Source: Eledone cirrhosa (Eukaryota). From it: a DNA stretch of 64,000 nt. This document shows, in pieces, positions 6,006-64,000 of the stretch. Position numbers and translations under genes: made by a program. The notes under the pieces were generated by a model that did no database searches, had not been told where the DNA came from, and saw only the letters and a program-made list of their open reading frames with translations. Each line of letters begins with the position of its first letter. The stretch's first letter is position 1. The stretch covers positions 42,160,001 through 42,224,000 of the forward strand of contig OZ024743.1 in NCBI GenBank assembly GCA_964016885.1, given 5' to 3'.

Positions 6006-7480
6006 ATAGGAACGAGTAGGACCCCGACGGCTGAGCTCAAGCCGTTTCGACGGCTAACTCTGGACTAAATGAAAATGTTTCTCCTGGTATTTGAATAGCC
6101 AAGCTTCTCAAGGGGTAATTCCATATATGGTAAAGGTGATTGTCACAAGGATTGGTGAAAGGTTTGTTGTTGAGACAATAATTCTATGAAGGCAATTTGT
6201 GGCGGGAGGGGGTAGCTGAACCTGCCAGTAGGAGAAAGAGGGAGAGGGGTGGAGGAGACCCAGTCATGCATTGATAGTGCCGACTACAGCTGGGCATGAG
6301 GTCAAAGAAGATACTAGGGAGGGAGGAGGGGGAGGAAGTCGAAACAGTAAGTAAAACAATATGGGGTAAATATATAGAAAAATACCGAGAGTGTTAAAAA
6401 GCAATTGAATGTAAAAAAAAAAAATAAAAGAATGTTCTGGTTACTCTGACCTAAGTCTCTCACTGGTACTGCTAGGCTAAAGAAAGGTTTACTAGGTGGG
6501 ACGGAATTATAATGAGACCCTTTTAAGAGGTATAAGTAATAAACCGAGTATATCTTACGGTGACGGGTCAACAAGTTAGGGGCCAAAATATTAAAGAAAC
6601 TACCACGAAATAATAAATAAAGGTTTCTACCCCAGGCACAAGGCCAGCAACCACCCAGTGCAAAAAAGTAAACTAATACGAAATAATAATTCAGAATCCC
6701 GAAAAAGAATACTAATACTATCTCTGAGGGTGCCGCCACGATACAAAAGTTCCAGTGCAAACTACATAAACGCTCGTACGAGGTATATGTAAAATTCAAA
6801 ACGGAAAATTAATTCATAATCCCCCCCCCCCCCCACAAAAAAAAAAAAAATAAAGACTGATATACGAGAAATTAAAGCAAAGATACCACTAAGAAATATA
6901 GAAAGCACGGAAAAGGGGCAGCGGTCGGATAAGAAGGCAAGTATCCGGGGTCTAACACATCTGCTATAAAAGCGGAGTCGGCCAAATCTATCATAGAATA
7001 GGGGAAGGGGGTGGGGGTACTGAGACTACAAAGGACCGAGGGGCTGCCTCGGGTGGTCTAGAAAATGAAAAGGACGACGACAAAGAAAGAGGACTGGTTT
7101 GGAAGGACTAGGGAGGGATGGGTGGAAGAAGGAAATATAGAGGAAGCGATAAAAAGATATAAAAGCAGATATTACGTCTACCGTTGCAAGCAGGGGTTAC
7201 CCATTACAAAATCAGCAAGTGGGGTGTTATAGCCCTAGTCTACCCCCCGGATCATTATGAGGTTTGAGGGCGAGGTAAGTCCTACGCAATCTGTCTTTAC
7301 ATGCAGTAACCAGTTCATATTTCTTGTTTAGGAGTTGGTCCGTCGAAAACAACATTTGTAAAGTTTCCTCCGAGCATGAATTGCACGGACGGCGTCCTCC
7401 CGTGTAAGAGTTGGCTCTGGACAGTAAGCTCCAAGTGAGATCATAGGTAACGTTGTTATACTTGAGGTCCCATATGACCC
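6006..7480 (-). mobile_element. Inverted 3' copy (GIY-YIG C-terminus + pLTR) of the adjacent Penelope-like element
   Basis: Reverse complement of ~10070-11488. It joins the forward copy at gacccg (~7476) and its outer end abuts (TA)n. Confidence 0.92.
6021..6116 (-). ncRNA. Type I hammerhead ribozyme, U3-A8 variant core, long helix II
   Basis: Minus strand reads acccc TTGAGAA gcttggctattc...gagttagccgtc GAAA cggcttgagctcagccg TC ggggt. Helix I is acccc/ggggt, helix III is acggct/agccgt, and the cleavage triplet is GUC. Confidence 0.75.
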
Positions 7481-8158
7481 GTCACCGTAAGATATACTCG
7501 GTCTATTACTTATACCTCTTAAAAGGGTCTCATTATAATTCCGTCCCACCTAGTAAACCTTTCTTTAGCCTAGCAGTACCAGTGAGAGACTTAGGTCAGA
7601 GTAACCAGAAATTGTTTATTTTTTTTTTTTACATTTAATTGCTTTTTAACACTCTCGGTATGTTTCTATATATTTACCCCATATTGTTTTACTTACTGTT
7701 TCGACTTCCTTCCCCTCCTCCCCCCTAGTATCTTCTTTGACCTCATGCCCAGCTGTAGTCAGCACTATCAACGCATGACTGGGTCTCCTCCACCCCTCTC
7801 CCTCTTTCTCCTACTGGCAGGTTCAGCTACCCCCTCCCTCCACAAATTGCCTTCATAGAATTATTATGTCTCAACAACAAACTTTTGACCAATCCTTGCT
7901 CGGCTATTCAAATACCAGGATAAACATTTTCATTTAGTCCAGAATTAGCCGTCGAAACGGCTTGAGCTCAGCCGTCGGGGTCCTACTCGTTCCTATTACC
8001 CACTCTAAGTATTGAGTACTTTGGTGCGTTATGGTTCACCTGGTTCCTTACCACATTTCCTCCTTTATCTAGCTCCTATTCCCGTAGTAGAGCACTTTCC
8101 GACCCTACCACGCCGTATCCAGACTTTTCCGCTAAGCTCTAGTTCTTTCACCCGCACC

Positions 8159-10323
8159 ATGTGAAAACACAACATTGACTTCTCTACCAAGAACATCCCA
8201 GTCCCACCGAAAAAAATTTACCTTCGGATGCTCACGCAAAAAATCGATCTATTTGCGAAAAGACTTAGATGGAGAACTTTTTTCTACGACAGATATTGCG
8301 ACAATCAGGACTTCGGTACCAAGGAGAGATTCGGATTTATTACCTACAAATCTCCCCCTCCGAACCCTATGCTCTCACCCCTCGAGAATGACCTTTTCCA
8401 ACTGGTCAAGAACATTAAATTCAAACCCAGACACAACCGATTCCTACAAAAACTCCGTAGCAACTTAACAGAGTATGATAACACCAATGACATCATGGTG
8501 CACTCGGATAAAACTGGTAATCTCTATTTTGTCAACCCCGACAGATACCACACACTGATCAGGAGCAGCCTAAACTCCACCTATAAAAAGGCTAACCACT
8601 CATGCATCGGGGACATAAATCGAGATGGACAACAAATTACCTCCAGCCTCGGGGTCGCCGACCGCACGGAACCCCTAGACCCATAGACACCCTACTTCAC
8701 ACTGAAGGACCACAAATCCGATTTCGACCGTAAACCTTCTATCAGGCTTATAAACCCAACGAAGTCCGACATAGTGAGAATCAGCAAAAAAACCTAGACC
8801 GCGTTATACCAAAAGTTAAGCAACACGCCCGACTTAGCCTATGGTTCAACACCCAGGAAGTAATCTCATGGTTCAGCAATATGGAGGAAAAACGAGACAC
8901 TAAATTTCATCCAGTTTGACATAGAGAGTGACTATGCGTCAATCACCTTACCGCTACTTACGGCTGCCTTGGACTTCGCCGAAGCACTTGTGCCCATCAC
9001 CCACCAGGAAAGAAACATCATCCTCCACGCCAGGAAGACAGTCTTACTCTTCGACAACTCAAAATGGATAAAGAGAGCTTCCGACTCACCCTTCGACGTC
9101 AGCATGGGCGCGACGGATTCGGCTGAGGTCATAGATCTTATAGGATTATTCCAAATAGCCAAACTCACCGATATGTTTCCTGCATTCGGCGGTGGATTGT
9201 ACCGTGATGATGGGCTCCTTACCCCTAAAGGGTAAAACCTCAGTAGTACAGATCGTGTCCGTAAACAATTAATCAGCTTCTTCCGCGACTGGGGATTTAA
9301 AATATCCCTACAAACGTCGCTGACCCGAGTAAACTTCCTGGACGTTACCCTTGACCTCGATAATGATTTGTACTACCCATACAGGAAACCTAACGACAAC
9401 CTGCACTACATCCACCGCCGGTCAAACCATCCTAGGAACATCACCAATAACCTGGTTAAAAACATCTCCCTCCGCATATCCCGTTTGTTAGCTAATGAGC
9501 AGATATTCGAGGAACATGCGCCGTATTACATCCAGGCCCTCAAGCGGAGTGGTTTCCGGGAGGAAATATCCTACTGTCCAGCTTCCATTAGCGGAACCAG
9601 CAGGCGACACCGCCGCTCACGCAATGTAACATGGTTCAATCCTCCCCACAACGCCGAGGTGACAACTCCTATCGGGAAAATCTTCTTTAGGCTCATTGAA
9701 AAACACTTCCCACTACAACAACGCTACCACAACATAATTTAAAAAATACCATCAAACTCTCTTACAGCACCACACCAAACTTTGCACAAAGCATCGTCTC
9801 CTCTGACAACAAAAAACACAACCCCTATGGAAGAAATAACCTAAATAGCAGCGGAGAGCCGACCAGGAGGTGCAACTGTCCTGATGGATCCATTTTCCCC
9901 CTCGACAACAGATGCAGAGATCGTAATGTGATCTACCAGTGCAACGTGAGGACGGACACCTCCAACAAGGCTTATATAGGATTAACCGCATGTGACTTCA
10001 AGACCCGGCTATACCAACATAGACATACCTTCCGAAACCCGGCCCGGCATCACGCCACTACACATTCGGGCCACATATGGGACCTCAAGGATAACAACAT
10101 TACCTATGATCTCACTTGGAGCTTACTGTCCAGAGCCAACTCTTACAGGGGAGGACGCCGTCCGTGCAATTTATGCTCGGAGGAAACTTTACAAATGCTG
10201 TTTTCGACGGACCAACTCCTAAACAAGAAATATGAACTGGTTACTGCATGTAAAGACAGATTGCGTAGGACTTCCCTCGCCCTCAAACCTCATAATGACC
10301 CGGCGGGTAGACTAGGGCTATAA
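8159..10323 (+). pseudogene. Disrupted PLE reverse transcriptase + GIY-YIG endonuclease ORF (~720 codons)
   Basis: Fragments FSTKNIP, RLRWRTFF, DKTGNLY, DIESDYASI, SMGA, GGGLYRDDGL, NFLDVTLDL, YRKPN, CNC linker, IYQCNV...YIGLT...FKTRLYQH and CNLCSEE, with several stops and frameshifts. Confidence 0.92.
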
Positions 10324-11377
10324 CACCCCACTTGCTGATTTTGTAATGGGTAACCCCTGCTTGCAAAGGTAGACGTAAGATCTTCTTTTATATCTTTTTA
10401 TCGCTTCCTCTATATTTCCTTCTTCCCCCCATCCCTCCCTAGTCCTTCCAGCCCAGTCCTCTTTCTTTGTCGTCGTTCTTTTCATTTTCTCACCCACCCG
10501 AAGCAGCCCCTCGGTTCTTTGTAGCCTCAGTACCCCCACCCCCTTCCCCTATTCTATGATAGATTTGGCCGACTCCGCTTTTTATAGCAGATGTGTTAGA
10601 CCCCGGATACTTTCCTTCTTATCCGACTGCTGCCCCTTTTCCGTGCTTTCTATATTTCTTAGTGGTGTCTTTGCTTTAATTTCTCGTATATCAATCTTTA
10701 TTTTTCCGTATCAAATTTTACATATACCTCGTACGAGCATTTATGAAATTTGCACTAGAACTTTTAAATCGTGGCGGCACCCTTAGAGATAGTATTAGTA
10801 TTCTTTTTCGGGATTCTGAATTATTATTTCGTTTTAGTTTACTTTTTTGCACTGGGTGGTTGCTGGCCTTGTGCCTGGGGTAGAAACCTTTATTTATTAT
10901 TTCGTGGTAGTTTCTTTAGTATTTTGGCCCCTCACTTGTTGACCCGTCACCGTAAGATATACTCGGTTTATTACTATACCTCTTAAAAGGGTCTCATTAT
11001 AATTCCGTCCCACCTAGTAAACCTTTCTTTAGTCTAGCAGTACCAATGAGAGACTTAGGTCGTAATAACCAGAAATTGTTTTTTTTTCAATTGCTTTTTA
11101 ACACTCTCGGTATTTTTCTATATATTTACCCCATATTGTTTTACTTACTGTTTCGACTTCCTCCCCCTCCTCCCCCCTAGTATCTTATTTGACCTCATGC
11201 CCAGCTGTAGTCAGCACTATCAACGCTTGACTGGGTCTCCTCCACCCTCTCCCTCTTTCTCCTACTGGCAGGTTCAGCTACCCCTCCCTCCACAAATTGC
11301 CTTCATAGAATTATTATGTCTCAACAACAAACTTTTGACCAATCCTTGTGACAATCACCTTTACCATATATGGAATT

Positions 11378-11473
11378 ACCCCTTGAGAAGCTCGGCTATT
11401 GTAATACCAGGATAAACATTTTCATTTAGTCCAGAATTAGCCGTTGAAACGGCTTGAGCTCAGCCGTCGGGGT
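11378..11473 (+). ncRNA. Type I hammerhead ribozyme (U3-A8 core) in the 3' pLTR
   Basis: acccc TTGAGAA gctcggcta...tagccgtt GAAA cggcttgagctcagccg TC ggggt; same motif as 6021-6116. Confidence 0.72.
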
Positions 11474-11565
11474 CCTACTCGTTCCTATTACCCACTCTAC
11501 TACCCTAACTATTGAGTACTTTGGTGCGTTATGGTCCACCTGGTTCCTTACCACATTTCCTCCGT

Positions 11566-11632
<67 letters not shown>

Positions 11633-14039: not shown

Positions 14040-14327
14040 CATGGTGGCTACCAACTCGTTTTCGAGAACGTCCACTACTTTATATCCATGTAGGAGAACT
14101 CCTACCTATGCACTGAACGAGTGACATTTTAGTCCAGCCAGCGACTTGAAAACTCTGGTACAAACACTACACTTGTGACAATTATTGACACATAGTGCTG
14201 GGCCCATGGTACCATGTGACGACAAGTGCAGAGAGATCTCCAGATATAAAGCAATGCCTGTGCCGTGAAGCTGTTATAGTGAGCAAAGGCACTGCACAAA
14301 GCCAGTCCCACTCTCCTAACCAAGATG
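14040..14327 (-). mobile_element. Short non-autonomous RTE-related element (5'-truncated copy)
   Basis: Reverse complement of ~60120-60410. Its 3' end ctcgaaaacgagttggtagccaccat resembles the RTE 3' terminus at 15640-15685. Confidence 0.7.
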
Positions 14328-14370
14328 CATACATACATACATACATACATACATACATACATACATACAT

Positions 14371-15540
14371 ACTCAGTGTTACTGGGAACTTTAACATCAA
14401 TGGTGATGTGGATAGGCTATACTTCTCACGCAAGGAAGGTGGCCGGGGTCTAAAATCAATATTAACAACATATGAGACCCGGATAGTGACACTGAAGCAA
14501 CACCTTCAACAGAGGAAAAAGGTTGGCAACCATCTTGCCCAGGTTTATGACCATGAAAAAAGAAATATCATTAGAATAGCGACTGATCTGGAGGAGAGAT
14601 ATGGAATAAAGCCCGATATAAATCTCTCACCCAGAGAAATCGGAAGATCCTATTCAATGTTCAAACAAGAAAAAAAAATTGACCAATTTACAGAAAAAGT
14701 TGTGCATGGATACTTGAGGCGTAAAACACAGACCATAGAGGGGATAAACCACTCAAAAAGCCTGGCATGGAGTTCCGACAAGTTTATGACATCACACCTT
14801 GAGGGATATCTCTATGCAATACAGGAACAAGAACTCCCGACCAAATATCTGCTGCACAAAAGAGGAGGGCCAGCAGCTGACAATAAATGTAGGCTATGTA
14901 AAACAAAGATCGAGGATGTAAGCCACATTGTTGCCAGCTGCGAAAGAATGTCATCTCGCTACTACCTCCCATGAGACACGATGGGATAGCTAGAACCATC
15001 TGGAACGCACTTCGGAAAACAAAATCAACAACAAACGAGGAAGAATATATTGAGACAGATGGCACTAAGGAATACTGGTGGAACCTGAAAATAAAAACTG
15101 CCACCAAATTAAAGTACAACCGGCCTGATATTGTAGTTTGGGACCACACATTGAAAACGTGTTCTGTTGTGGAGATCAGCTGCCCACTTGATGTAAACGT
15201 TGTCAGAAAAATACAGGAGAAGGAGGACATCTACGGACCATTGATGAGGAGTTTACAAATCCAGTATCCAAGATACACCTTTAGCTTCATACCCATCATT
15301 ATTGGTGCTACGGGTTATATACCAACCCGCTTGGACCAAAGTATGACTGAACTTGGATTTGCGGACAAAAAGCGCAGCTCCCTAATTCATAGTCTACAAA
15401 TGGCTGCGATAGCTGGCACCTTCAAAATTTGCAAAACATTCTTGCGATTCAAGGGATGACAATTTCTTTTCTTTTACAACCTTGCCACCAGGAAGGTGAC
15501 CGGTCAAAAAATATACTCAAAATTAAGAGAAAGAGAAAAC
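14371..15540 (+). mobile_element. 5'-truncated non-LTR element with CCHC zinc knuckle + restriction-like endonuclease (R4/Dong-like)
   Basis: RLYFSRKEGGRGL, AIQEQEL, CRLC...EDVSHIVASC, RHD, RPDIVVWD...VEISCP, K...Y, with one frameshift at ~14970. (TACA)n flanks both sides. Confidence 0.85.
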
Positions 15541-16101: not shown

Positions 16102-19100
16102 TAGCAACTAACAGTGCTGCGATCGAATGTGGCTTTTTAGCCCAGCCAATGATCTAAAATGTCTTGCACAGAGTCGGCAACCAAAACATTCACTGGGAAT
16201 AGTCGGCTGTGGTTGGAGTTCGTGTACTTTTGCATGTCGCTTGAGCCCTCCTGCTGATTTACATTCTCTACAACATGTTTGGCAATCATGATGAGTAGCA
16301 TCTCCAACAGCAGCCTGGTAGTCAACCACTGGTCTTACTTTATGACTGCGAAGATGACTTTCGAGTCCAGCTTTGCTTAAGCAGAGTCTCGCACAGACGC
16401 TGTATGTCAGCACCATAGGAGGACCCTCGCCGTCTGGAAGTGCAACAGCAATGCCCTTCCTCACGTCCCGCTTTACTTTCTCGTGTGCGATTCGAGATGC
16501 CTCAAAGGCAACTTTTCCCTCATATACAGTCTTTCTCCATTTATTACGATCAGCAGCAATATTTTCCCATGTATCAGCAGAGATGTTAGCGTCTTTCAGA
16601 GAGGCTTTCAGGGAATCCTTATACCTCTTTTTTGGTTTATGTGGCGGTCGTTTTCATTTAACCAACTCTCCATAGAAGAGTTGTTTTGGTATTCTAGAAT
16701 CCTTCATCCTGGCAAGGTGACCACTCCAACGGAGTCGTTGCTTAAGCACAAGAGCTTCTATACTGTCACACATAGAGCTTTCCAAAATCTCGACATCACT
16801 GATGTGGTCCCTCCAGTGAACGCCATGGATCCGTCTGAGGCACATCTGATGGAAACGCTCCAATTGCTTAAGGTGGCGTCGATATGTGACCCAGGTCTCG
16901 CAGGCATAAAGAAGACAAGAGAGTACACATGCCCTGTACACATTTACCTTTGTCCTCCTGCATATGTCTCGCCGACCCTAGAGTCGCCTTTCTAGCTTTC
17001 CGAAAGCATCACCTACTTTTCTAATCCTAAGTCAGATTTCACTGTCAAGGTTGCCATATCGATTGACAGTGCTTCCCAGGTAGACAAACTGATCAACCAC
17101 TCCAAGTCGTTTGCCATACACATAGATGTTTGGTTCAGTGTACTGCTTACTAGGGGCAGGTTGGTACATGACGTCGGTTTTCTTGAGACTGACAGTCAAA
17201 CCCAGGGCAGTGCAAGCGTCAGAAAATGCATTCAAAATGTGCTGCATATCACTCTCTGTGTGCGCTACAAGATCGCAATCATCTGCATACAAGAGGTCTC
17301 TTATGACTGATGTAAATACTTTTGTCTTCGCAGCAAAGCGCCTGAAGTTAAATATGCTGCCTGAGGTTCGATATCGGATGTAAACACCATGCTCGCAATT
17401 CCTGAATGCAATACAGAAAACCATTGCAAAGTATATGGCAAACAAGGTCGGTGCTGGAATATCCACCTGTTTCACTCCATTTTTTCCTGAGATAGGCTCC
17501 GACATGCTACCCCCGACATTAACCCAAGCCTTCATGTCGTCATGGAAAGACCTAACTAAAGCAAGGAACTTATCAGGGCAACCAAGTTTCTGGAGAACCT
17601 TCCATAATGCATCTCTGTTGACAGTATCGAAAGCCTTTGTCAGATCGACAAAAACCTCATACAGATCCAAGCCTTGTTCAATGCACTTCTCCTGGAGCTG
17701 TCTAGCTGAGAAGATCATATCAGTAGTGCCGCGTCCAGCACGAAAACCAGATTGACTTTCAGGAAGGACACTATCTGCAATGTGTGTCAGCATACGGTCC
17801 AGAAGCACCCTACATAAAACTTTCCCTACGACAGAAAGCAATGATATACCTCTGTAGTTCCCACAATCATTCCTGTTACCCTTTCCCTTGTACAAGACCA
17901 CCATTACTGCATCTCTCCAGTCCTCAGGCACGGATTCATTAGCCCATATCTTTCCAAACAAAGAGTGAAGATGTTGCAGGAGTCTCTCACCACCATATTG
18001 TAGGAGCTCAGCATGTATGCCATCCCTACCTGGAGATCTTCCACTGTTCAGCTTCGAAATAGCCACTGCAACCTCCACAAGCGTCGGAGGTTCTGCGAGA
18101 GCTATTTTCACAGGACTTTCCGGAATGAGATTGAGGAAATCTTCACTGATGACAGACGGCTGATTCAAAAGATCATCAAAGTGCTCTCGCCACCTTCGTA
18201 GAATTCCCTGTGAGTCACGAAGAAGTTCTTTGCCATCCTTGCTGCGAATCGGTGTCACCAGAGAAGAAGACGGTCCATAAACCTCACGCAAGAGACTGTA
18301 CAACAGCTTTGTGTTATTGGAATCAGACGCAGTTTGTATCTCACCAGCCTTCTCACTCCACCACTGATCCTTAATCTGAGAAAGACTTCGCCTAACACGT
18401 GATTTTACATCCCTGAGCTCCTCATGCAACGTATCCCTCTCCTGTGGTTTTGCCGTCAAGTAGCGTGACAGAGCACGCCTCTTTTCAGCCAACAAGTCTT
18501 CTATATGTACATCATTCTCATTAAACCAGTCCTGATGTTTTCTCAGAACACGTCTGCCTACATCATAAACCGTCTTTTTAAGGGTCGGCCAATCCTCACC
18601 AAGATCTGCAGCCTGCATCTCTTCTTCCAATGTTCTCTTCACATTTTTATCCTTAAGACGAGCAGCATTCAATCTTTTGGGCAGGGTAACACCAGGAGCC
18701 CGGATTTTACGTTTGGTGATTAGATTCACTTTTGCGCGTACCAGGCGGTGGTCCGTCCAGCACTCAGCTCCACGAAGAACACGAACACACTGCACATCCT
18801 GTCTGTCACGCATCCTGACTAGGACGTAGTCCAAAAGATGCCATTCCTTAGATGCAGGATGCATCCATGTGGTCTTGAATTTGTTCTTTTGTTGGAACAT
18901 GGTGTTGGTAACACACAGATCCAGCTCCTTACACATCTGCAGCAGGAGCATACCATTGTTGTTACACTTTCTCACCCCATGCCTTCCGATTACATTCCAT
19001 GTGTTAAAATCCCTACCCACTCTAGCATTAAATCACCAAGCACGATAACTTTGTCTGCCTGAGGGATATTTCTTAAAACACCTTTCAAGGCATGATAAAA

Positions 19101-23358: not shown

Positions 23359-23390
<32 letters not shown>

Positions 23391-23392
23391 CA

Positions 23393-23594
23393 ATATAACA
23401 AAGGAAATGTGGTAAGCAACCAGATTGACCATGACGCATCAAAGTACTCAATACTTAGGGTAGTAGAGTGGGTAATAGGAACGAGTATGACCCCGACGAA
23501 TGAGCTCAAGCCGTTTCGACGGCTAATTCTGGACTAGTCCAGAATTAGCCGTCGAAACGGCTTGAGCTCAGCCGTCGGGTCCTACTCGTTCCTA
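23393..23594. repeat. Head-to-head pair of pLTR 3' fragments (family of 7476-11568)
   Basis: The left arm is the reverse complement of ~11427-11568. The centre ggactagtcc is at ~23535, and the right arm ends at ctcgttcctat + (TA). Confidence 0.9.
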
Positions 23595-23599
23595 TATAT

Positions 23600-24342
23600 A
23601 CAATATATAGAGAAACACACAGATACAAGCGGACACATACATACAAATGAATATATCCACATATATCCCTGAGTTACTGGTACCAACCTCAACCGATGTT
23701 GCTCTATGAATAACTGGGACAAACCAATCCGAATTGATTAGACTGATTCAGTATCAGGGCTATATAATACATTACAAAGAGAGAAGAAACATTAGATATA
23801 ATTAGTAATAAGGTATATCATACCTAAACTGCTTCTATAGTACCCGACTACGTAGTTTCGTGGCGCATTATGCAAAAATACTACATCATAGATATATAGA
23901 GTTTTTGTGAGGTCTGCCGACTTATCAAGAGGATACCTCATTAAGGGTTTCAAAACACGTCTGTGAGGGGCGAGATAGAATCTCGAAAAGGTGGAGGGGA
24001 AGTCAGTCATGTGATACAGCGGACAAGAAACAGAGCTAAGCCCCTTATAACCGTGGAAAAATACCACGAGGGCGGAGCATGTATGTATATCAAAGCCGTA
24101 GAAGAGGTGGTTTGAGGAGGCGAGAAGTATGAATAATGGTAGCTAGCCAGCAGTCACTACACTTCAAAGTTTACTCGTCCAAAGGGAGTTATAAACAATA
24201 TATAGAGAAACACACAGATACGAGCGGACACATACATACACATGAATATATCCACATATATCCCTGAGTTAGTGGTACTAACCTCAACCGATGTTGCTCT
24301 ATGAATTGGTGCCACTAACTCAAGTTGGTACGACTATCTCAG

Positions 24343-24345: not shown

Positions 24346-24405
<60 letters not shown>

Positions 24406-24411
<6 letters not shown>

Positions 24412-25835
24412 TTGTAGCTCTGAAATAGCAATATATATATGGATGTAAATATAATGTATTTTGCAATACACTTTATGCTTAATTAAAAGCATTTTGAAGA
24501 CCGTAAGCTATTGTTTTAAAGTAGTGACAAATTCACTCACTTCGATCTCAGCAAACAGGAGGAGATAAGCCGACATGACATGTTTCGCTTTTGTTGAAGC
24601 TTATCAAGGCCAACTACCCCGCCCGTCTGCTGAGATCAATGATGTTATATTCTTATAGAAATCTAGTAAATAATCAGGAGCTGATTATGCAGAGCGGTTG
24701 TTGGTCAGGAAGAAAGTAAAAATTAGAATTGTAGCTTTGAAATAGCAATATATAGATGGATGTAAATATAATGTATTTTGCAATACACTTTATGCTTAAT
24801 TAAAAGCATTTTGAAGACCGTAAGCTATTGTTTTAAAGTAGTGACAAATTCACTCACTTCGATCTCAGCAAACAGGAGGAGATAAGCCGACATGACATGT
24901 TTCGCTTTTGTTGAAGCTTATCAAGGCCAACTACCTCGCCCGTCTGCTGAGATCAATGATGTTATATTCTTTTAGAAATCTAGTAAATAATCAGGAGCTG
25001 ATTATGCAGAGCGGTTGTTGGTCAGGCAGAAATTAAAGATTAGAATTGTAGCTCTGAAATAGCAATATATATATGGATGTAAATATAATGTATTTTGCAA
25101 TACACTTTATGCTTAATTAAAAGCATTTTGAAGACCGTAAGCTATTGTTTTAAAGTAGTGACAAATTCACTCACTTCGATCTCAGCAAACAGGAGGAGAT
25201 AAGCCGACATGACATGTTTCGCTTTTGTTGAAGCTTATCAAGGCCAACTACCCCGCCCGTCTGCTGAGATCAATGATGTTATATTCTTATAGAAATCTAG
25301 TAAATAATCAGGAGCTGATTATGCAGAGCGGTTGTTGGTCAGGCAGAAATTAAAAATTAGAATTGTAGCTCTGAAATAGCAATATATATATGGATGTAAA
25401 TATAATGTATTTTGCAATACACTTTATGCTTAATTAAAAGCATTTTGAAGACCGTAAGCTATTGCTTTTAATTAAGCATAAAGTGTATTGCAAAATACAT
25501 TATATTTACATCCATATATATATTGCTATTTCAGAGCTACAATTCTAATTTTTAATTTCTGCCTGACCAACAACCGCTCTGCATAATCAGCTCCTGATTA
25601 TTTACTAGATTTCTATAAGAATATAACATTATTGATCTCAGCAGATGGGCGGGGTAGTTGGCCTTGATAAGCTTCAACAAAAGCGAAACATGTCATGTCG
25701 GCTTATCTCCTCCTGTTTGCTGAGATCGAAGTGAGTGAATTTGTCACTACTTTAAAACAATAGCTTACGGTCTTCAAAATGCTTTTAATTAAGCATAAAG
25801 TGTATTGCAAAATACATTATATTTACATCCATATA
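24406..25835. repeat. 317-bp tandem array (3.3 units) plus an inverted 1.2-unit arm; each unit carries a type I HHR (retrozyme-like)
   Basis: Units start at 24406, 24723, 25040 and 25357, with a strand switch at ~25464 and (TA)n at both ends. HHRs lie at 24568-24611, 24885-24928, 25202-25245 (-) and 25660-25703 (+). Confidence 0.95.
25660..25703 (+). ncRNA. Type I hammerhead ribozyme, U3-A8 core (representative of the 317-bp family)
   Basis: ggcc TTGATAA gctt caacaa aagc GAAA catgtcatg TC ggct. Helix I extends via gatctcagcaga...gggg / ctcctcctgtttgctgagatc. Confidence 0.85.
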
Positions 25836-26010
25836 TATATATATATAGTTAACTATTAGACAGGAACAAAAGACAGAGGGGCAGTACAACTGGTAGTTTA
25901 TTAAGTTCACGCTTTTGTGAGTGGGGTGGTGCTGGTGTGGTGGAGTATATATGTGTTTATTAATTAACAGATTAAATTTTAAACAAATAATCGCTGCTTT
26001 CACCCTTTAC

Positions 26011-26077: not shown

Positions 26078-27207
26078 CTTATATGAAATATAAGAATCAA
26101 AGAACTGTTCAAAACATTATTGTGCTTACAGCTGTTTCCTCCAAACCGAGGTTTGGTTTCTTCGGAGCAATTTAGTACCACATATATACTAGTCCAGAAT
26201 TAACCGTCGAAACGGCTTGAGCTCATTCGTCGGGGTCATACTCGTTCCTATTACCCACTCTACTACCCTAAGTATTGAGTACTTTGGTGCGTCATGGTCA
26301 ATCTGGTTGCTTACCATATTTCCTTTGTTATATTGTATATATATATATAACGTAACAGCCTCCTGTATTGAACTAAAGAACACCAGACTACGATCTCTAA
26401 CTGGATTGTCAAACGCTCAATATCGGATTGTCGTGGATTATGTGAGGGGCATATAATCGAAAAATACACTCCCCTGACCATGAAAATGCCGAAGTACATG
26501 TAATACTTGACATCCCTTCGCTGTGCATCTCCAATACTTTTAACACTTTTAATGCTTGCACTATTTTTAATGCTTATAACATTTCTCCACACACAGACTA
26601 TATCAATCATATAAAGAATTTGCCACCAGATCTACCAACCTAACCCTCTTGTTTACCTACCTAAGTGCCTCTACCACACATATCTCTCTGCCACACTATA
26701 TAAACAAGACGCACATGCGTGTCACACATATAACATTTGCACTATATAACCGCTTATCTTCATGTTGTATTTTAACCTGTATTTTTGATTTTTGATTGTA
26801 CCTCTTAATATAAATGTAATCTCGAAGTGTGTACTGCCACTCTAAATTCTGTAATGAATGTTGACCCACAGTGTTTGAATATGTATCAAGGTTTGAATAT
26901 GTATCGGTATGTCTCTCGGCTGAAAAGGAGGTCATATAACTGTCCATGCATTAATAAATTGCTCCAAAGAAACCAAACCTCGGTTTGGAGGAAACAGCTG
27001 TAAGCACAATAATGTTTTGAACAGTTCTTTGATTCTTATATTTCATATAACTGCTCTGTAAATCCTGTGATGTTTTTACATTGAGCTACTTAACTTACTG
27101 GTAATAAGGTAGTAATACATTACTGCCTACCACTATTTAGGGTGTGTGTAAAATACTTATAACTGCATAAGGTTTTGTATTTACATAACCATAAATAGTA
27201 TAACTAA

Positions 27208-44121: not shown

Positions 44122-47049
44122 AACAAAGCCAATCTGTAAACGCAGAACTGGATATTTCAAAAAACGTTGCAACCGGAGGAAGACAGGAAGACGATACTTT
44201 GGTTCGTGGTAACGTTCGCTGGCAAAGAACGGGAAAAAACGAATAATACGTCATTAATAGGAGCGGTGAAAAACAATTACGCGCAAAGACAAAACCACGT
44301 TTATGGTATAAAAGAGGTCGTAGACTAATGTTCTCTTAGGTGGTGCATAGAGACGTTCTCTGGCAATGAACGAAAAAACGAAGATAATAAGTCATATGTG
44401 GAGCGTGGAGAACAATAGCACGTAAAGACAAAACCACGTAAATGGTATAGCAGAATCGTAGACTAAAATTCTAACTAGGAGACCAAATGAATCTCCGCTA
44501 CAGAGTTAAGAACAAAGTAAATAAATACAATACAGAAGTAATAGAAACAAATAAATACATATACGCAAACAGATACGTACATACACAAGCATACGCAAAA
44601 CCTTACCATGGGTATACAAACCACGCACATATAAATATGTGCGTGTGTGTATGCTTGTGTCCAAATAAATAAATAATTATATAAGCGTATATAAGTAAAT
44701 AAATACGTATATAACAAGCGCACACGCATACCTACATATAAATACACTTATGTTCGGAGACGTACGTCATTCAAAACACGATGTACACATATACACACAC
44801 CCTACATACGTACTAACCCGCCTACTCACACAAACGCAAAACTCACGTTTACACATAACCAAAAGCATATGTACCAGAAAAAATAATATATACGCCATAA
44901 CATATACAATCAAATATACGTACGAGAAAGTATACGTACTTTCACAAAACAGGTAATATATACTTACCTATACAAATAAGTAATGGTATAAACATAACAT
45001 ATACTTAGCTACCACATCAAGACGTAAAATATCCGCGTATAGTTCGTACTATCCGTTAGGGTATAATGTGGGGCTGTAATACAGGAAAGTTTTGTGCAAT
45101 TTATGTTTACAAGCCGAAATTGCCTCAGATTTTTGTTTAAGATGTGGTCTTGGGCGTAGAGTAAGTCCAAGGCCTCAGCGGCGCAACGGTAAAGTTGTCT
45201 CTTATTTCCGTTATACAATCTGGCCGTAACTAGGATCTCCGAGTGTAACTTATATTGGGTGTGGTTGATATAAGCTGAAAGTGACGTCATATTCCTTCTT
45301 AAAGGGTAACGAAAATAATGCGTATGCATGTAAAGACGCTGCTTGAATCTATTGGCGGTTAACCATATGTAGGCCCTACGGGACGTGGATGTTTCAACCT
45401 TGCATTTGTAGACAATGTTACTAGAGAGGCATTTCCCGGATAGGGGGCAGTCAACCCGATTCCTACAATTACAGTTAGTACTAACTACAGGGTTGCACGT
45501 GTTCCTACGGCTATGTAGTATAGCTAAATTTGAAGCTGTGATGTTATGTGCAAGGTTAAGATTCGTAGAGTAAGAAATTTTAATAGTATTTCTATTAAAA
45601 ATGTTACTATATATTTGTGTAGGGGGAAAATGCTTCATAATAAGGGAGAGAAAGACCTTAGCTAATGGTGTGGCCACCTCCATATTATATGGTGGGTTAT
45701 ACCATATAATGCGTCGGGATCTATTCCTTCTAGGTCTATTCTCGTACTCTGTATATGCTACCTTATCGACAAATCCACTCCGAGCAAGAGCTTCATTGTA
45801 ATATGTGGAATAGTCATTGAAAATATGCTCGTTAGTAGATAGACGGGAAAGCCTCAAAGAAACTTTTCTTACCAGGTTCTTGGTTATGCTGGCAGGATGG
45901 TTATAATGCTTACTTATGTAATTAAGCGTATCATTCGGCTTCCTATACGGGTAATGCAAGCCATTCGATAAATTAAGGGTAACGTCGAGGTAATTAACGA
46001 CCGAGAGATTGGCATCAACCTGTATGGAGTGGTTGGAGCCTTTAAAGAAGGCTGTGAGTTCTTTTCTGAACCTGTCGCATGCAGGTGGGCCCAACTTAGT
46101 CATGATCAAAAGACCATCATCACGGTACAAACCACCGCCCACGTTGGGGAATTCTTCCTAGATAGAGAAAAGAAGGAAAAGGCCGATATGATCAGTAACC
46201 TCCGCAGAATCGCTGGTGACCATACTCACGTCGAATGGGGTACTATTAGATTGTTTAATCCAAATAGAGTCGTCGATATTAATCACCGACTTACAGGCAT
46301 TGAGGTTGACATCAACTCCGAAATCCTTAACCACTGTGAGTGTTTTACCGAAATTGATAGCTCTAAGGAGAAGTGGTAAAGTGATGGATGAGTAGTAATT
46401 ATTGATGTCGAATTGGATAAAACGGCAATGTTCCTTGTTGCATATTCCGTTGAACCAATCAATCACCGCGAAAGAATTGTTCCACAGTGCAAGAGGGGCC
46501 AAACTTCTAATTTCATGTATAATTCTATCAAGAATCCTTTTACTAAGTCTACCTAAATCGGACTTCTAGAGTTAATAAGCCAAATAGAGGGGTTGTTCGG
46601 AAAATTGAATCTGTGATCCTTCAGGGTAAAGTGGGGAGAAATAGGGTCCAGAGGTTCAGTCCGGTCAAGGATTTTGAGATCAGAGGTATATTTTAAACCC
46701 AGCATCGTTGATATCATTTATGACGCTCCGATTAGTTTTACGGTAATACTTAGTTACAGCATTATGTAGCAGTTGATGGTAAGTACTGTGCTCCACTTGA
46801 TATAGTTTGCCATTCAAGATTTCTTCAGTGGGATTTTTTAAATTCATTTTCGACCTGTCTGTCATCGGACTTACTTGCCAAAAACTGCTTTTTCTGGAAA
46901 TGGTGGCGGGGAGGGGTATCGTTGGACTTAAAAATGAGTAACTCTCGGCCGTATAAATTTAAAGAAAATCATTCACTGGGGATCGCCAAAATTTGTTTAT
47001 GCTCGTTTTATTTTCATGTTTTCAATTTATCTGAACTCTAATATAGCCG

Positions 47050-49620
<2,571 letters not shown>

Positions 49621-56340: not shown

Positions 56341-57227
<887 letters not shown>

Positions 57228-57397
57228 AAATATTATTTCGCTTCAAGCATAGCTTTATACAATATGTATAAATATTTCGTATTCCTAAAGAAATACGATT
57301 TTAGGAAGCCGTAGCTATGCAAACACCGGGTGGGCTAACGCCCTCTGATATATATATATATATATATGTATAAATATATTTATATATATATATACAT

Positions 57398-58172
57398 ATA
57401 TGAATGTACATATAGTGTATTTTGCAATACACTGTATGCTTAATTAGAAGCATTTCGAAGACCTTACACTATTGTTTTAGAGTAGTGAAAGTCTCACTTA
57501 CTTTAAATTTTCAGCAAACAAGGGGAGATAAAGCTGACAGATCTCTATTTCATACTTTTTGGTACTTATCAAAGCTAAGTACTCCACCTGTTTGGTGATA
57601 ATCATGAATGTTTGATTCTTATAGAATTCTAGTAATAATCAGGAACTGATTATACAGAACGGTTGCCGGTCAAGTAGAAATTGAAAATTAGAATTCGTTC
57701 TCTGAAACAGCGATATATATATGAATGTATATATAGTGTATTTTGCAATACACTGTATGCTTAATTAAAAGCATTTCGAAGACCTTACGCTATTGTTTTA
57801 GAGTAGTGACAGTCTCACTTACTTTAAATGTTCAGCAAACAAGGGGAGATAAAGCTGTCAGAGCACCAATTCTAATTTTCAAATTTCTGCTTGACCGGCA
57901 ATTGCTCTGTATAATCAGTTCCTGTTTATATCAAACATTCATGATTTTCAGCGAGCAGGTGGAGTACTTAGCTTTGATATGTACCAACAAGTACGAAACA
58001 GAGCTCTGTCAGCTTCATCTCCCGTTGTTTGATGAAAATTTAAAGTAAGTGAGACTGTCACTACTCTAAAACAATAGCGTAAGATCTTCGAAACGCGTCT
58101 AATTAAGCATACAGTGTATTGCAAAATACACTATAAATACATTCATATATATCGCTATTTCAGAGCACCAAT

Positions 58173-58894: not shown

Positions 58895-58900
<6 letters not shown>
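58214..58900 (+). mobile_element. Solo pLTR-like insertion with ~135 bp terminal direct repeat (period 553)
   Basis: atgaattctcgacagttggattacg at 58214 and 58767, with (TA)n on both sides. A degenerate HHR-like tcc CTGATGA cgcaat GAA...gga lies at 58753-58786. Confidence 0.6.
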
Positions 58901-58961
<61 letters not shown>

Positions 58962-58964
<3 letters not shown>

Positions 58965-59166
58965 GAGGAAATGTGGTAAGGAACCAGGTGGACCATAACG
59001 CACCAAAGTACTCAATACTTAGGGTAGTAGAGTGGGTAATAGGAACGAGTAGGACCCCGACGGCTGAGCTGAAGCCGTTTCGACGGCAAATTCTGGACTA
59101 AACATTTTTTAGTCCAGAATTACCCGTCGAAACGGTTTGAGCTCAGCCGTCGGGGTCCTACTCGTT

Positions 59167-59170
<4 letters not shown>
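58962..59170. repeat. Head-to-head pLTR 3' fragments (family of 7476-11568)
   Basis: Centre ggactaaacattttttagtcc; arm ends identical to those of 23393-23594. Confidence 0.9.
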
Positions 59171-59211
<41 letters not shown>

Positions 59212-61889: not shown

Positions 61890-62420
<531 letters not shown>

Positions 62421-62430
62421 TATATATATA

Positions 62431-63089
62431 TTAGAATTGGTGCTCTGAAATAGCTATATATATATGAATGTATATATAGTGTATTTTGCAATACACTGTA
62501 TGCTTAATTAAAAGCATTTCGAAGCCTTATGCTATTGTTTGAGAGTAGTGACACACTCACTTACTTTCATTTTCAGCAAACAGGGGAGATAAAGCTGACA
62601 GGGCCCTGTTTCGCATGTATTGATGCTTATCAAAGCCAACTACTCCTCCTGTTTACTGAAATCATGGATGTTTGGTTCTTATAGCATTCTAGTAAATAAT
62701 CACGAACTAATTATACAGAGCGGTTGCCGGTCAAGCAGAAATTGAAAATTACAATTGGTGCTCTGAAATAGCTATATATATATGAATGTATATATAGTGT
62801 ATTTTGCAATACACTGTATGCTTAATTAAATTCTGCTTGACCGGCAACAGCTCTGTATAATCAGTTCCTGATTATTTACTAGAATGCTATAAGAACCAAA
62901 CATCCATGATTTCAGTAAACAGGAGGTGTAGTTGGCTTTGATAAGCATCAATAAATGCTAAATAGGGCCATGTCAGCTTTATCTCCCCTGTTTGTTGAAA
63001 ACTAAAGTAAGTGAGTCTGTCACTACTCTAAAACAATAGCATAAGGCTTCGAAATGCTTTTAATTAAGCATAAAGTGTATTGCAAAATA

Positions 63090-63095
<6 letters not shown>
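62431..63095. repeat. 318-bp-period tandem + inverted array, third member of the U3-A8 HHR repeat family
   Basis: Unit starts at 62431 and 62749, with a switch at ~62828. HHR ggct TTGATAA gcat caatac atgc GAAA cagggccctg TC agct at 62593-62637 (-), and a mutated copy at 62934-62978 (+). Confidence 0.9.
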
Positions 63096-63139
<44 letters not shown>

Positions 63140-63147
<8 letters not shown>

Positions 63148-64000
63148 AAACGTAAAATCAGTGAAGCATCTGAACTCAATTTATTGTGTGTTACAATTGT
63201 TTCGCCGGCAGACAGCTCGAGACGCGATCATTGTGTGGTTCTGTCTGATTCTGGATCTGCAGGTTCGACGGACACTTCTAATAACTTCGCATCAAATTTT
63301 CTCACTCTCTTAAAATTTGATACATAATGGATATCCGAGCTTTTCTAGGTACATATATTTCGGTCCTATCATCTATTCCTAGCCCCGTCACTATTTTTTT
63401 GGTCGTGGCGTTAATGTTATCTAGGTTGTCCTGTCCTGTGGTCCTGTAATTTTTCCTAATCCCTTTCCCGATGCAGTCGTTGTATGTAAAACGGTCAAGC
63501 ATGTATACATTACCAGTTTTGTCCGATCGCAGAAGTAAATCCTGGCATTCTTCCATGCTTTTGATTGTGGAGCTTAAACTCCGGAGGTAATCCGTATGTC
63601 GTGTATTATTCCTTCGGAACTAGATGTTTCGGACGATATTGATGATACGATTTTCAAATTCTTCCAGCTGTGCGTTATGTGGTGGGTGTCGTCTAAATCC
63701 AAAGATCCGCTTTAGGCCGTCCTGTGGATTATCGGGTGCGTGTTGTTGTGTCCTTCTGTCGTGGTGAAATGCGCGCCATCTCATGCGTCTAACGAAAGAG
63801 TTGGTGTGGTGTATCAGTAAGCTCATGTACGTGTTGTGAGACGGGATCAGGATGTCCTTTAAAGAGGAAGAGTAATTGAATGTTTCCATGGCGAATCGCT
63901 GTGAGCGCTCTACTTGTGGAGGAGCGTAATATATATGTGTGTCTGATGGTAGCTAAGATGCTTCCATAGGTGGTATGCCGGTTGAGCACTCTATGTTCTA
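63140..64000 (-). mobile_element. Internally deleted Penelope-like element (ORF N-terminus + pLTR end)
   Basis: METFNYSSSLKDILIP...FVRRMRWRAF and DKTGNVY...DRTE are homologous to 8159-8686. The ORF stops at ~63300 and is followed by a degenerate HHR (63188-63275) and (TA)n. Confidence 0.85.

Follow-up and report, generated by a model that had tools for sequence, protein, structure and literature searches.

A conserved long-armed hammerhead motif with a U3-A8 core in a Hydra-type Penelope lineage of Eledone cirrhosa

The stretch of Eledone cirrhosa DNA analysed here (64,000 nt; assembly GCA_964016885.1, contig OZ024743.1, positions 42,160,001 to 42,224,000; hereafter the window) contains a motif resembling a hammerhead ribozyme with an unusual core, and raises the question of whether it is one and, if so, how far the retroelement that carries it depends on its cleavage. 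A preliminary description of the sequence had placed a type I hammerhead, with a U3-A8 core and a helix II domain of about 55 nt, in a Penelope pLTR at 6021-6116. The anatomy of the motif and the element around it bear out this assignment. The reading preferred here, with a probability of about 0.62, is that a Hydra-type Penelope lineage has kept a type I hammerhead fold, for which cleavage after GUC is predicted chiefly in the dimeric state, and that this cleavage is likely useful for the spread of the element without being strictly required. The relevant features, in window positions, are these:

6021-6116, minus strand: type I hammerhead with a U3-A8 core and a 56 nt helix II domain, in an inverted, 5′-truncated element copy
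6116-6112, minus strand: helix I, 5′ strand (5 bp)
6111-6105, minus strand: core, UUGAGAA
6104-6049, minus strand: helix II domain (56 nt)
From 6048, minus strand: GAAA
6045-6040 with 6032-6027, minus strand: helix III (6 bp, 7 nt loop)
6026, minus strand: C17 of GUC, with the predicted cut between 6026 and 6025
6025-6021, minus strand: helix I, 3′ strand
11378-11473, plus strand: sense-strand hammerhead in the 3′ pLTR (core at 11383-11389, G10.1 at 11390, G12 at 11446)
11402-11434, plus strand: loop II region, the 3′ part of which (about 11414-11434) is where most short genome copies start
11449-11467, plus strand: helix III and loop III, an 18 nt palindrome with one extra U; predicted dimer interface
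6006-7476, minus strand: inverted, 5′-truncated copy of the 3′ end of the element, ending 20 nt beyond the predicted cut and adjoining (TA)n
7475-8068, plus strand: upstream partial-tandem pLTR copy, containing a hammerhead without a core
8136-10323, plus strand: decayed ORF for an RT with a C-terminal GIY-YIG domain, in three frames with stops and with the Hydra-type motifs DKT, YRDD, RWR and CxxC
11489-11568, plus strand: ‘tail’, present on one arm only and followed by (TA)n

The type I architecture is present, with three helices round the core and helix I open-ended. The core letters U4 G5 A6 N7, A9, G12 A13 A14, the A15.1-U16.1 pair and H17 are all found, and the 3-8 pair is a Watson-Crick U3-A8 in both window copies. 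In their family no extra base separates A9 from G10.1, and helix III has five to six pairs. The second copy announced in the preliminary description does exist at 11378-11473, but in the opposite orientation: it lies on the plus strand, which is the sense strand of the ORF, with its cut predicted after 11468, while the first copy is on the minus strand. The plus copy carries a G10.1·U11.1 pair where the minus copy has G10.1-C11.1 (the state of 52 of 58 aligned rows, G·U occurring in the other six), and helix II of the minus copy has a private U·G pair. The long helix II domain stood up as described; at 56 nt it is indeed long, and it covaries between families. Helix III, by contrast with the same description, does not enclose the palindrome tgagctca: loop III is only 7 nt, and the 8 nt palindrome overlaps the helix. 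The longer palindrome at 11449-11467 was read directly from the sequence, and its putative role as a dimer interface comes from cofolding the majority sequences of subfamilies. In a third window copy (7898-8007, with its hammerhead at 7898-7980) a deletion of about 42 nt has removed the core and the 5′ strand of helix I. No contact between loops I and II was identified; a conserved UUAGUYC in loop II could pair with a GGA upstream of helix I, forming six pairs in family D and three to four in A-C, and this pairing passed no covariation test.

Judged from the sequence, the window copies lie in the pLTRs of a decayed Hydra-type Penelope element with a unit length of about 3.5 kb. The inverted segment at 6006-7476 matches 10074-11488 at 91.9% identity, and the decayed ORF is 88-92% identical in amino acids to the majority protein of subfamily B; a Pfam search gave no match for any of the four window ORF fragments. 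In two subfamilies the majority sequence has an open ORF, of 683 and 726 codons respectively; these ORFs encode an RT (YRDD) followed by a C-terminal GIY-YIG domain, and carry DKT (in place of DKG), CxxC and CxH. The CxCX5C linker was found in subfamilies B and C, a regular-expression search giving none for A2, and RWR stands where the Hydra-clade RWK motif is expected. The insertion target is (TA)n, as in the Hydra clade. The same layout was found in 20 further loci, in which one arm usually ends at the equivalent of 11488 and the other near 11586-11590. Compared by eye, the protein of the element resembles Hydra-1_Obim; the designation Hydra-type is based on the protein motifs and this comparison. 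The window copies themselves are decayed insertions that have probably been under no selection since landing.

A descriptor for long-armed type I hammerheads matched the window once, at the minus copy, and had no match in 200 locally shuffled windows. An exact-flank pattern that left the core open found 2,194 places in the genome (the reversed control found none). Patterns for related families added 2,287 matches (a sister family) and 196 more, and a separate long-armed family contributed 63; the retrieval patterns for all of these fixed several core and stem letters, and that for the separate family also fixed letters of its helix II. The expectation that searches based on CUGANGA would miss the motif was borne out. 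Rfam gave no hammerhead match at E ≤ 1 at either window copy, nor any in five of five loci from four long-armed families. Thus at least 2,194, 2,287, 196 and 63 matches, with small overlaps among them, escape both Rfam and CUGANGA descriptors in a single genome.

The many copies allowed the register of the core to be fixed. Position 7 is G, U, A or C depending on the subfamily, while U4, G5, A6 and A9 are constant; since the varying base is the fifth of the seven, the core reads U3 U4 G5 A6 N7 A8 A9, as had been proposed, and the alternative CUGA-GA register (position 7 deleted and an extra A) was rejected. A YUGANAA core was found in 1,832 of the 2,194 copies. In an alignment of 58 distinct copies from five subfamily groups, 89.6% of the cells of the hammerhead structure pair. 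The alignment across genomic copies that the preliminary description had suggested thus shows helix II pairing to be both kept and covarying: three helix II pairs are double-changed between families (in 11, 8 and 8-9 sequences), and double-change cells number 39 against 16.8 in shuffles. Helices I and III of the window's family are conserved and gave no useful covariation in this alignment. When RNAalifold was run on the same 58 copies, the hammerhead did not emerge: five helix II pairs were kept, but A9-G10.1-Y-U-C paired with loop III. A strand-swapped fold was considered as the conserved structure and rejected, as it shows only scattered double changes (two cells per helix of its own) and breaks in 10 sequences at a pair that covaries in helix II; it likely stays as a competing state. 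The most diverged family, D, keeps the long-armed fold and has, about 0.9 kb upstream at two loci, ORF pieces 29-45% identical to the family protein. In the separate long-armed family (19 aligned of 20 fetched loci), double changes occur at the 3-8 pair and in helices II and III. The motif is thus genuine and conserved, a long-armed hammerhead belonging to a Hydra-type Penelope lineage, its cleavage function being predicted.

How a single copy of the motif would fold is another matter. The preliminary description credited it with a stable helix III and, by implication, with activity as a monomer. For the monomer running from 6116 to 6021, folding predictions gave a mean pairing probability of 0.02 for helix II and 0.05 for helix III, against 0.90 for a rival hairpin that hides GAAA and closes over CGAA, which does not support that claim. 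The probability of this hairpin was 0.84-0.90 for the window copies and 0.57-0.83 for the majority sequences of A1, A2 and B, whose minimum is 0.7-2.7 kcal/mol lower in energy than the hammerhead. As the same strands (CGGCU/AGCCG) serve both helix II and helix III, single copies are predicted to waver between the hammerhead and the strand-swapped fold. When two copies were cofolded, the minimum was an exact double hammerhead for four of five majority sequences (A1, A2, B and D), and the fifth came within 0.6 kcal/mol of it. The A1 dimer was calculated at -70.3 kcal/mol, compared with -55.2 kcal/mol for two monomers, although such dimer energies favour any palindrome and disregard concentration. 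Since the monomer is predicted to sit mostly in the rival hairpin, activity would more likely come from the dimer. Efficient cutting by monomers with a stable helix III would agree with the five to six pairs of that helix and with families C and D, whose majority sequences are predicted to take up the hammerhead fold as monomers (helix II 0.84-0.91, helix III 0.81-0.85); given the strength of the rival hairpin in A1, A2, B and the window copies, we regard it as very improbable.

The 3-8 pair tells a more complex story than the window copies do. The preliminary description had named a lack of UUGANAA conservation across copies as a refutation, and this conservation was found only in part: the exact UUGANAA core occurs in 970 of the 2,194 family copies, and 862 copies have CUGANAA instead, that is, a C3·A8 mismatch. 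Position 8 is other than A in only 20 copies, two of them C3-G8. A further 14 C3·A8 cores were seen among the first 100 of the 2,287 sister-family matches, and the core of family E is U3·G8 in both of its copies. C3·A8 is a subfamily trait. Its copies share an open majority ORF of 683 codons (nine copies), and dN/dS between C3·A8 and U3-A8 majority ORFs was 0.06-0.14 in five comparisons; two short comparisons within family C gave 0.27-0.36. In a 28-row tree built from the final kilobase of the ORF, without the window's own ORF, C3·A8 forms a grade between the older U3-A8 family C and younger U3-A8 subfamilies. A single clade for the 11 A-type C3·A8 rows was rejected (AU test, p = 6.1e-5), and dS between early and late C3·A8 groups was 0.21. 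A tree of the motif rooted on D gave the same order with weaker support and placed the U3·G8 family E near the base; the window copies fall in a nested U3-A8 group, as does the upstream pLTR sequence. These trees rest on decayed copies and a close outgroup, and recombination could bend them. The order along the protein-coding lineage is thus U3-A8, then C3·A8, then U3-A8 again. To call the window motif simply a functional variant was therefore an overstatement, since a protein-coding C3·A8 grade is ancestral to its U3-A8 subfamily.

Published work bears on what this order implies for cleavage. Single changes at positions 3 or 8 reduce or abolish cutting in the hammerheads tested (PMC11167929, PMC9901934). 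In a Penelope element of the anole, single mutants at 3 or 8 showed no cutting and retained insertion in vitro, cutting there needing protein (PMC11167929). A deep mutational scan of a type III hammerhead found that only the G3-C8 swap rescued the 3-8 pair, so U3-A8 itself may be weak (PMC9901934); U3-A8 has also been cited as active in vitro and as occurring in nature (PMC3088659). Because a protein-coding C3·A8 lineage spread hundreds of copies, cutting appears helpful but not strictly needed.

The same observations can be read in two other ways. One holds that cutting is essential and that C3·A8 cores still cut, through a wobble, through help from a dimer or protein, or in trans by heterodimers with U3-A8 copies. 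When protonated, an A·C pair resembles U·G in shape. Both non-Watson-Crick states found as subfamilies, C3·A8 and U3·G8, are of the wobble type, with no purine-purine or pyrimidine-pyrimidine subfamily seen. Moreover, A1, A2 and B do not differ in helix III or its palindrome, which would allow heterodimers. The low or absent activity of the published single mutants argues against this, as does the fact that, among the sampled copies, much of the C3·A8 interval has no coexisting U3-A8 branch, and we consider it quite improbable. The other holds that the fold has ceased to cut and is kept for a structural job, such as binding a protein or marking where reverse transcription stops or lands, its core persisting by descent or as a protein-binding surface. 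The C3·A8 copies of the family and its sister, the U3·G8 core of family E, and the finding that cutting is dispensable for insertion in vitro in another element (PMC11167929) all favour this. Against it, the other unpaired core letters are fixed while loop II turns over: across the majority sequences of eight subfamilies, variation was seen in 2 of 14 core columns and in 24 of 33 loop II columns (p = 3e-4), a contrast that is inflated and partly circular because the retrieval patterns fixed core and stem letters. In addition, U3-A8 came back and is the state of the youngest subfamilies, and in the separate long-armed family 59 of 63 matches retain the 3-8 pair (counted by eye: 40 U3-A8, 19 C3-G8, four U3·G8 and no C3·A8).

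Further evidence on a structural role comes from short copies of the motif. Its 3′ half occurs 51,168 times in the genome, about 10 times the number of full motifs counted. For 81 arms at 70 loci (the first places on one contig), 62 begin 12-32 nt before G12, that is, inside loop II; eight begin 4-11 nt before G12, two at 53-56 nt, and nine run through the core. As many as 64 of the 81 arms are joined to an inverted arm, and such paired arms are not independent. Arms that start 20 nt downstream of the cut and arms that start about 120 nt downstream of it end alike in this loop II stretch, which indicates that the stop depends on position and not on distance. In sequencing run X3, whose kind is unrecorded, summed contig depth rose about ninefold at 11430 and showed no step at the predicted cut. 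Both the loop II ends and the missing step fit a fold that no longer cuts; weighed against the conservation of the core and the return of U3-A8, we find this reading rather unlikely, and the useful but dispensable ribozyme described above remains preferred. The stubs would be compatible with a nick or a transcription start in loop II, or with a roadblock at the helix II apex.

Several other origins for the stubs were rejected. Splicing at an AG 11 or 16 nt before G12 does not match ends spread over 4-32 nt, and neither splicing nor cuts at the loop II GUC accounts for the 64 arms joined to an inverted arm, which share no exon. In family D, which lacks that GUC, stubs end (by eye) in the same stretch. 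Amplification of one short family is unlikely, as nearly all junctions differ. The stubs may point to a position-specific reverse transcription stop inside the ribozyme arm. The window has stubs of its own, at 23374-23609, 26188-26349, 56565-56895 and 58900-59206; they are fold-back or single, begin in loop II and are flanked by (TA)n.

Under the preferred reading of a ribozyme acting mainly as a dimer, two copies in a transcript of a tandem element would, according to the folding models, join at the helix III palindrome to form a double hammerhead. By analogy with other Penelope elements, the cuts may release unit-length RNA, possibly with the assistance of a protein, and reverse transcription would start about 20 and 100-120 nt downstream of the cut, on both strands of the (TA)n target. 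Assembled contigs of two RNA runs (X1 and X2, which look like one data set) covered 0.05 of the words and left the motif uncovered, matching only 11014-11153 at <90% identity; assembled contigs cannot show RNA ends.

Both unusual traits of the motif, the U3-A8 pair and the long helix II, have published precedent. U3-A8 Penelope hammerheads were reported in 2014, with about 1,300 matches in Schistosoma (PMC4209133). Like the window motif, the Cercyon hammerheads of Schistosoma mansoni are of type I, lie in pLTRs and combine U3-A8 with a longer than usual helix II, and the Cercyon/Penelope motifs share a palindromic helix III, proposed dimers and pairs on opposite strands (PMC4209133). They differ in their helix II stems of 7-8 bp, compared with a 56 nt domain here, and in having no helix III or one of 1-2 bp, compared with 5-6 bp and an 18 nt palindrome; the minimal hammerheads of that report also have an extra base between 9 and 10.1 that is absent from the window motif. 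Elements of the Hydra clade, such as Hydra-1_Obim, likewise have a C-terminal GIY-YIG domain, DKT, CxCX5C, CxxC, CxH and (TA)n targets, together with a 3′ hammerhead with a paired helix III, although most are <3 kb; the Hydra hammerheads listed in File S2 are all CUGANGA with a helix II of 3-7 bp and loops of 3-10 nt, unlike the window motif (PMC8557442). The hammerhead of PLE-X1_sMoe, in the supplement of the same paper, has a comparable 53 nt helix II domain (9 bp and a 35 nt loop), but with a canonical C3-G8 pair and a 2 bp helix III, in a plant element from a different clade. The Poseidon element PAc, from Anolis carolinensis, also has two reverse transcription start sites downstream of its hammerhead that give a ‘tail’; it differs in belonging to the Penelope/Poseidon clade and in having a compact C3-G8 hammerhead that overlaps the ORF start (PMC11167929). 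Action as dimers has been proposed for the hammerheads of metazoan Penelope-like elements (PMC4209133; PMC6765202) and shown for axolotl retrozymes (PMC7229834), and a 2026 preprint ties animal retrozymes to the pLTRs of these elements (10.64898/2026.07.22.740005). In the literature covered, no paper was found that combines a long arm with U3-A8 or that describes a C3·A8 subfamily or a loop II stop.

Other hammerheads and elements were noticed along the way. At 24394-25840 lies a retrozyme-like 317 bp tandem repeat (three minus-strand copies and one inverted plus-strand copy), each unit of which carries a compact type I hammerhead with a U3-A8 core; these motifs, at 24549-25722, match Rfam HH9 weakly (29-32 bits). 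There are related repeats at 57355-58152 and at 62419-63121, where a U3-A8 core lies near 62639, and the hammerhead of a further relative (locus L210:1500-1720, minus strand) combines a CUGAGGA core with a helix II that holds an insert of about 40 nt. A compact canonical CUGAUGA type I hammerhead, in which a palindromic UGCA replaces helix III, is found at 48977-49016 (plus strand), and at locus L208:1500-1690 (plus strand) another long-armed, hammerhead-like U3-A8 motif, whose helix III is palindromic, is directly duplicated. The separate long-armed family (loci L303-L322) has a fully palindromic helix III and a 10 nt word in common with loop II of the window's family; two of its 20 loci have RT pieces, 52-60% identical, close by on the opposite strand. 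ORF pieces at 45132-46811 (minus strand; 45% identical over 574 residues to the protein of the element) and 63326-63658 (minus strand; 31% over 111 residues) are likely Hydra-type Penelope copies. Those at 14189-15459 (plus strand) and 16108-19032 (minus strand) belong to other non-LTR retrotransposons, judging from RT-like motifs in their translations.

As a tentative proposal, the C3·A8 lineage may be a dated record of a ribozyme crossing a fitness valley, lasting about 0.2 synonymous substitutions per site, spanning at least 862 copies and ending with U3-A8 regained, with a sister family passing from C3-G8 to U3-A8 via U3·G8. Wobble cores might then cut when rescued by a dimer or a protein, or the long helix II arm might have a second job, as a reverse transcription stop signal through which most insertions become the 50,000 short fold-back stubs. 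On the role of Penelope hammerheads, this family offers U3-A8, C3·A8, U3·G8 and C3-G8 as natural alleles in one scaffold. As these alleles are matched, each with many copies and a tree, their cleavage rates could be compared with the spread of the subfamilies that carry them.
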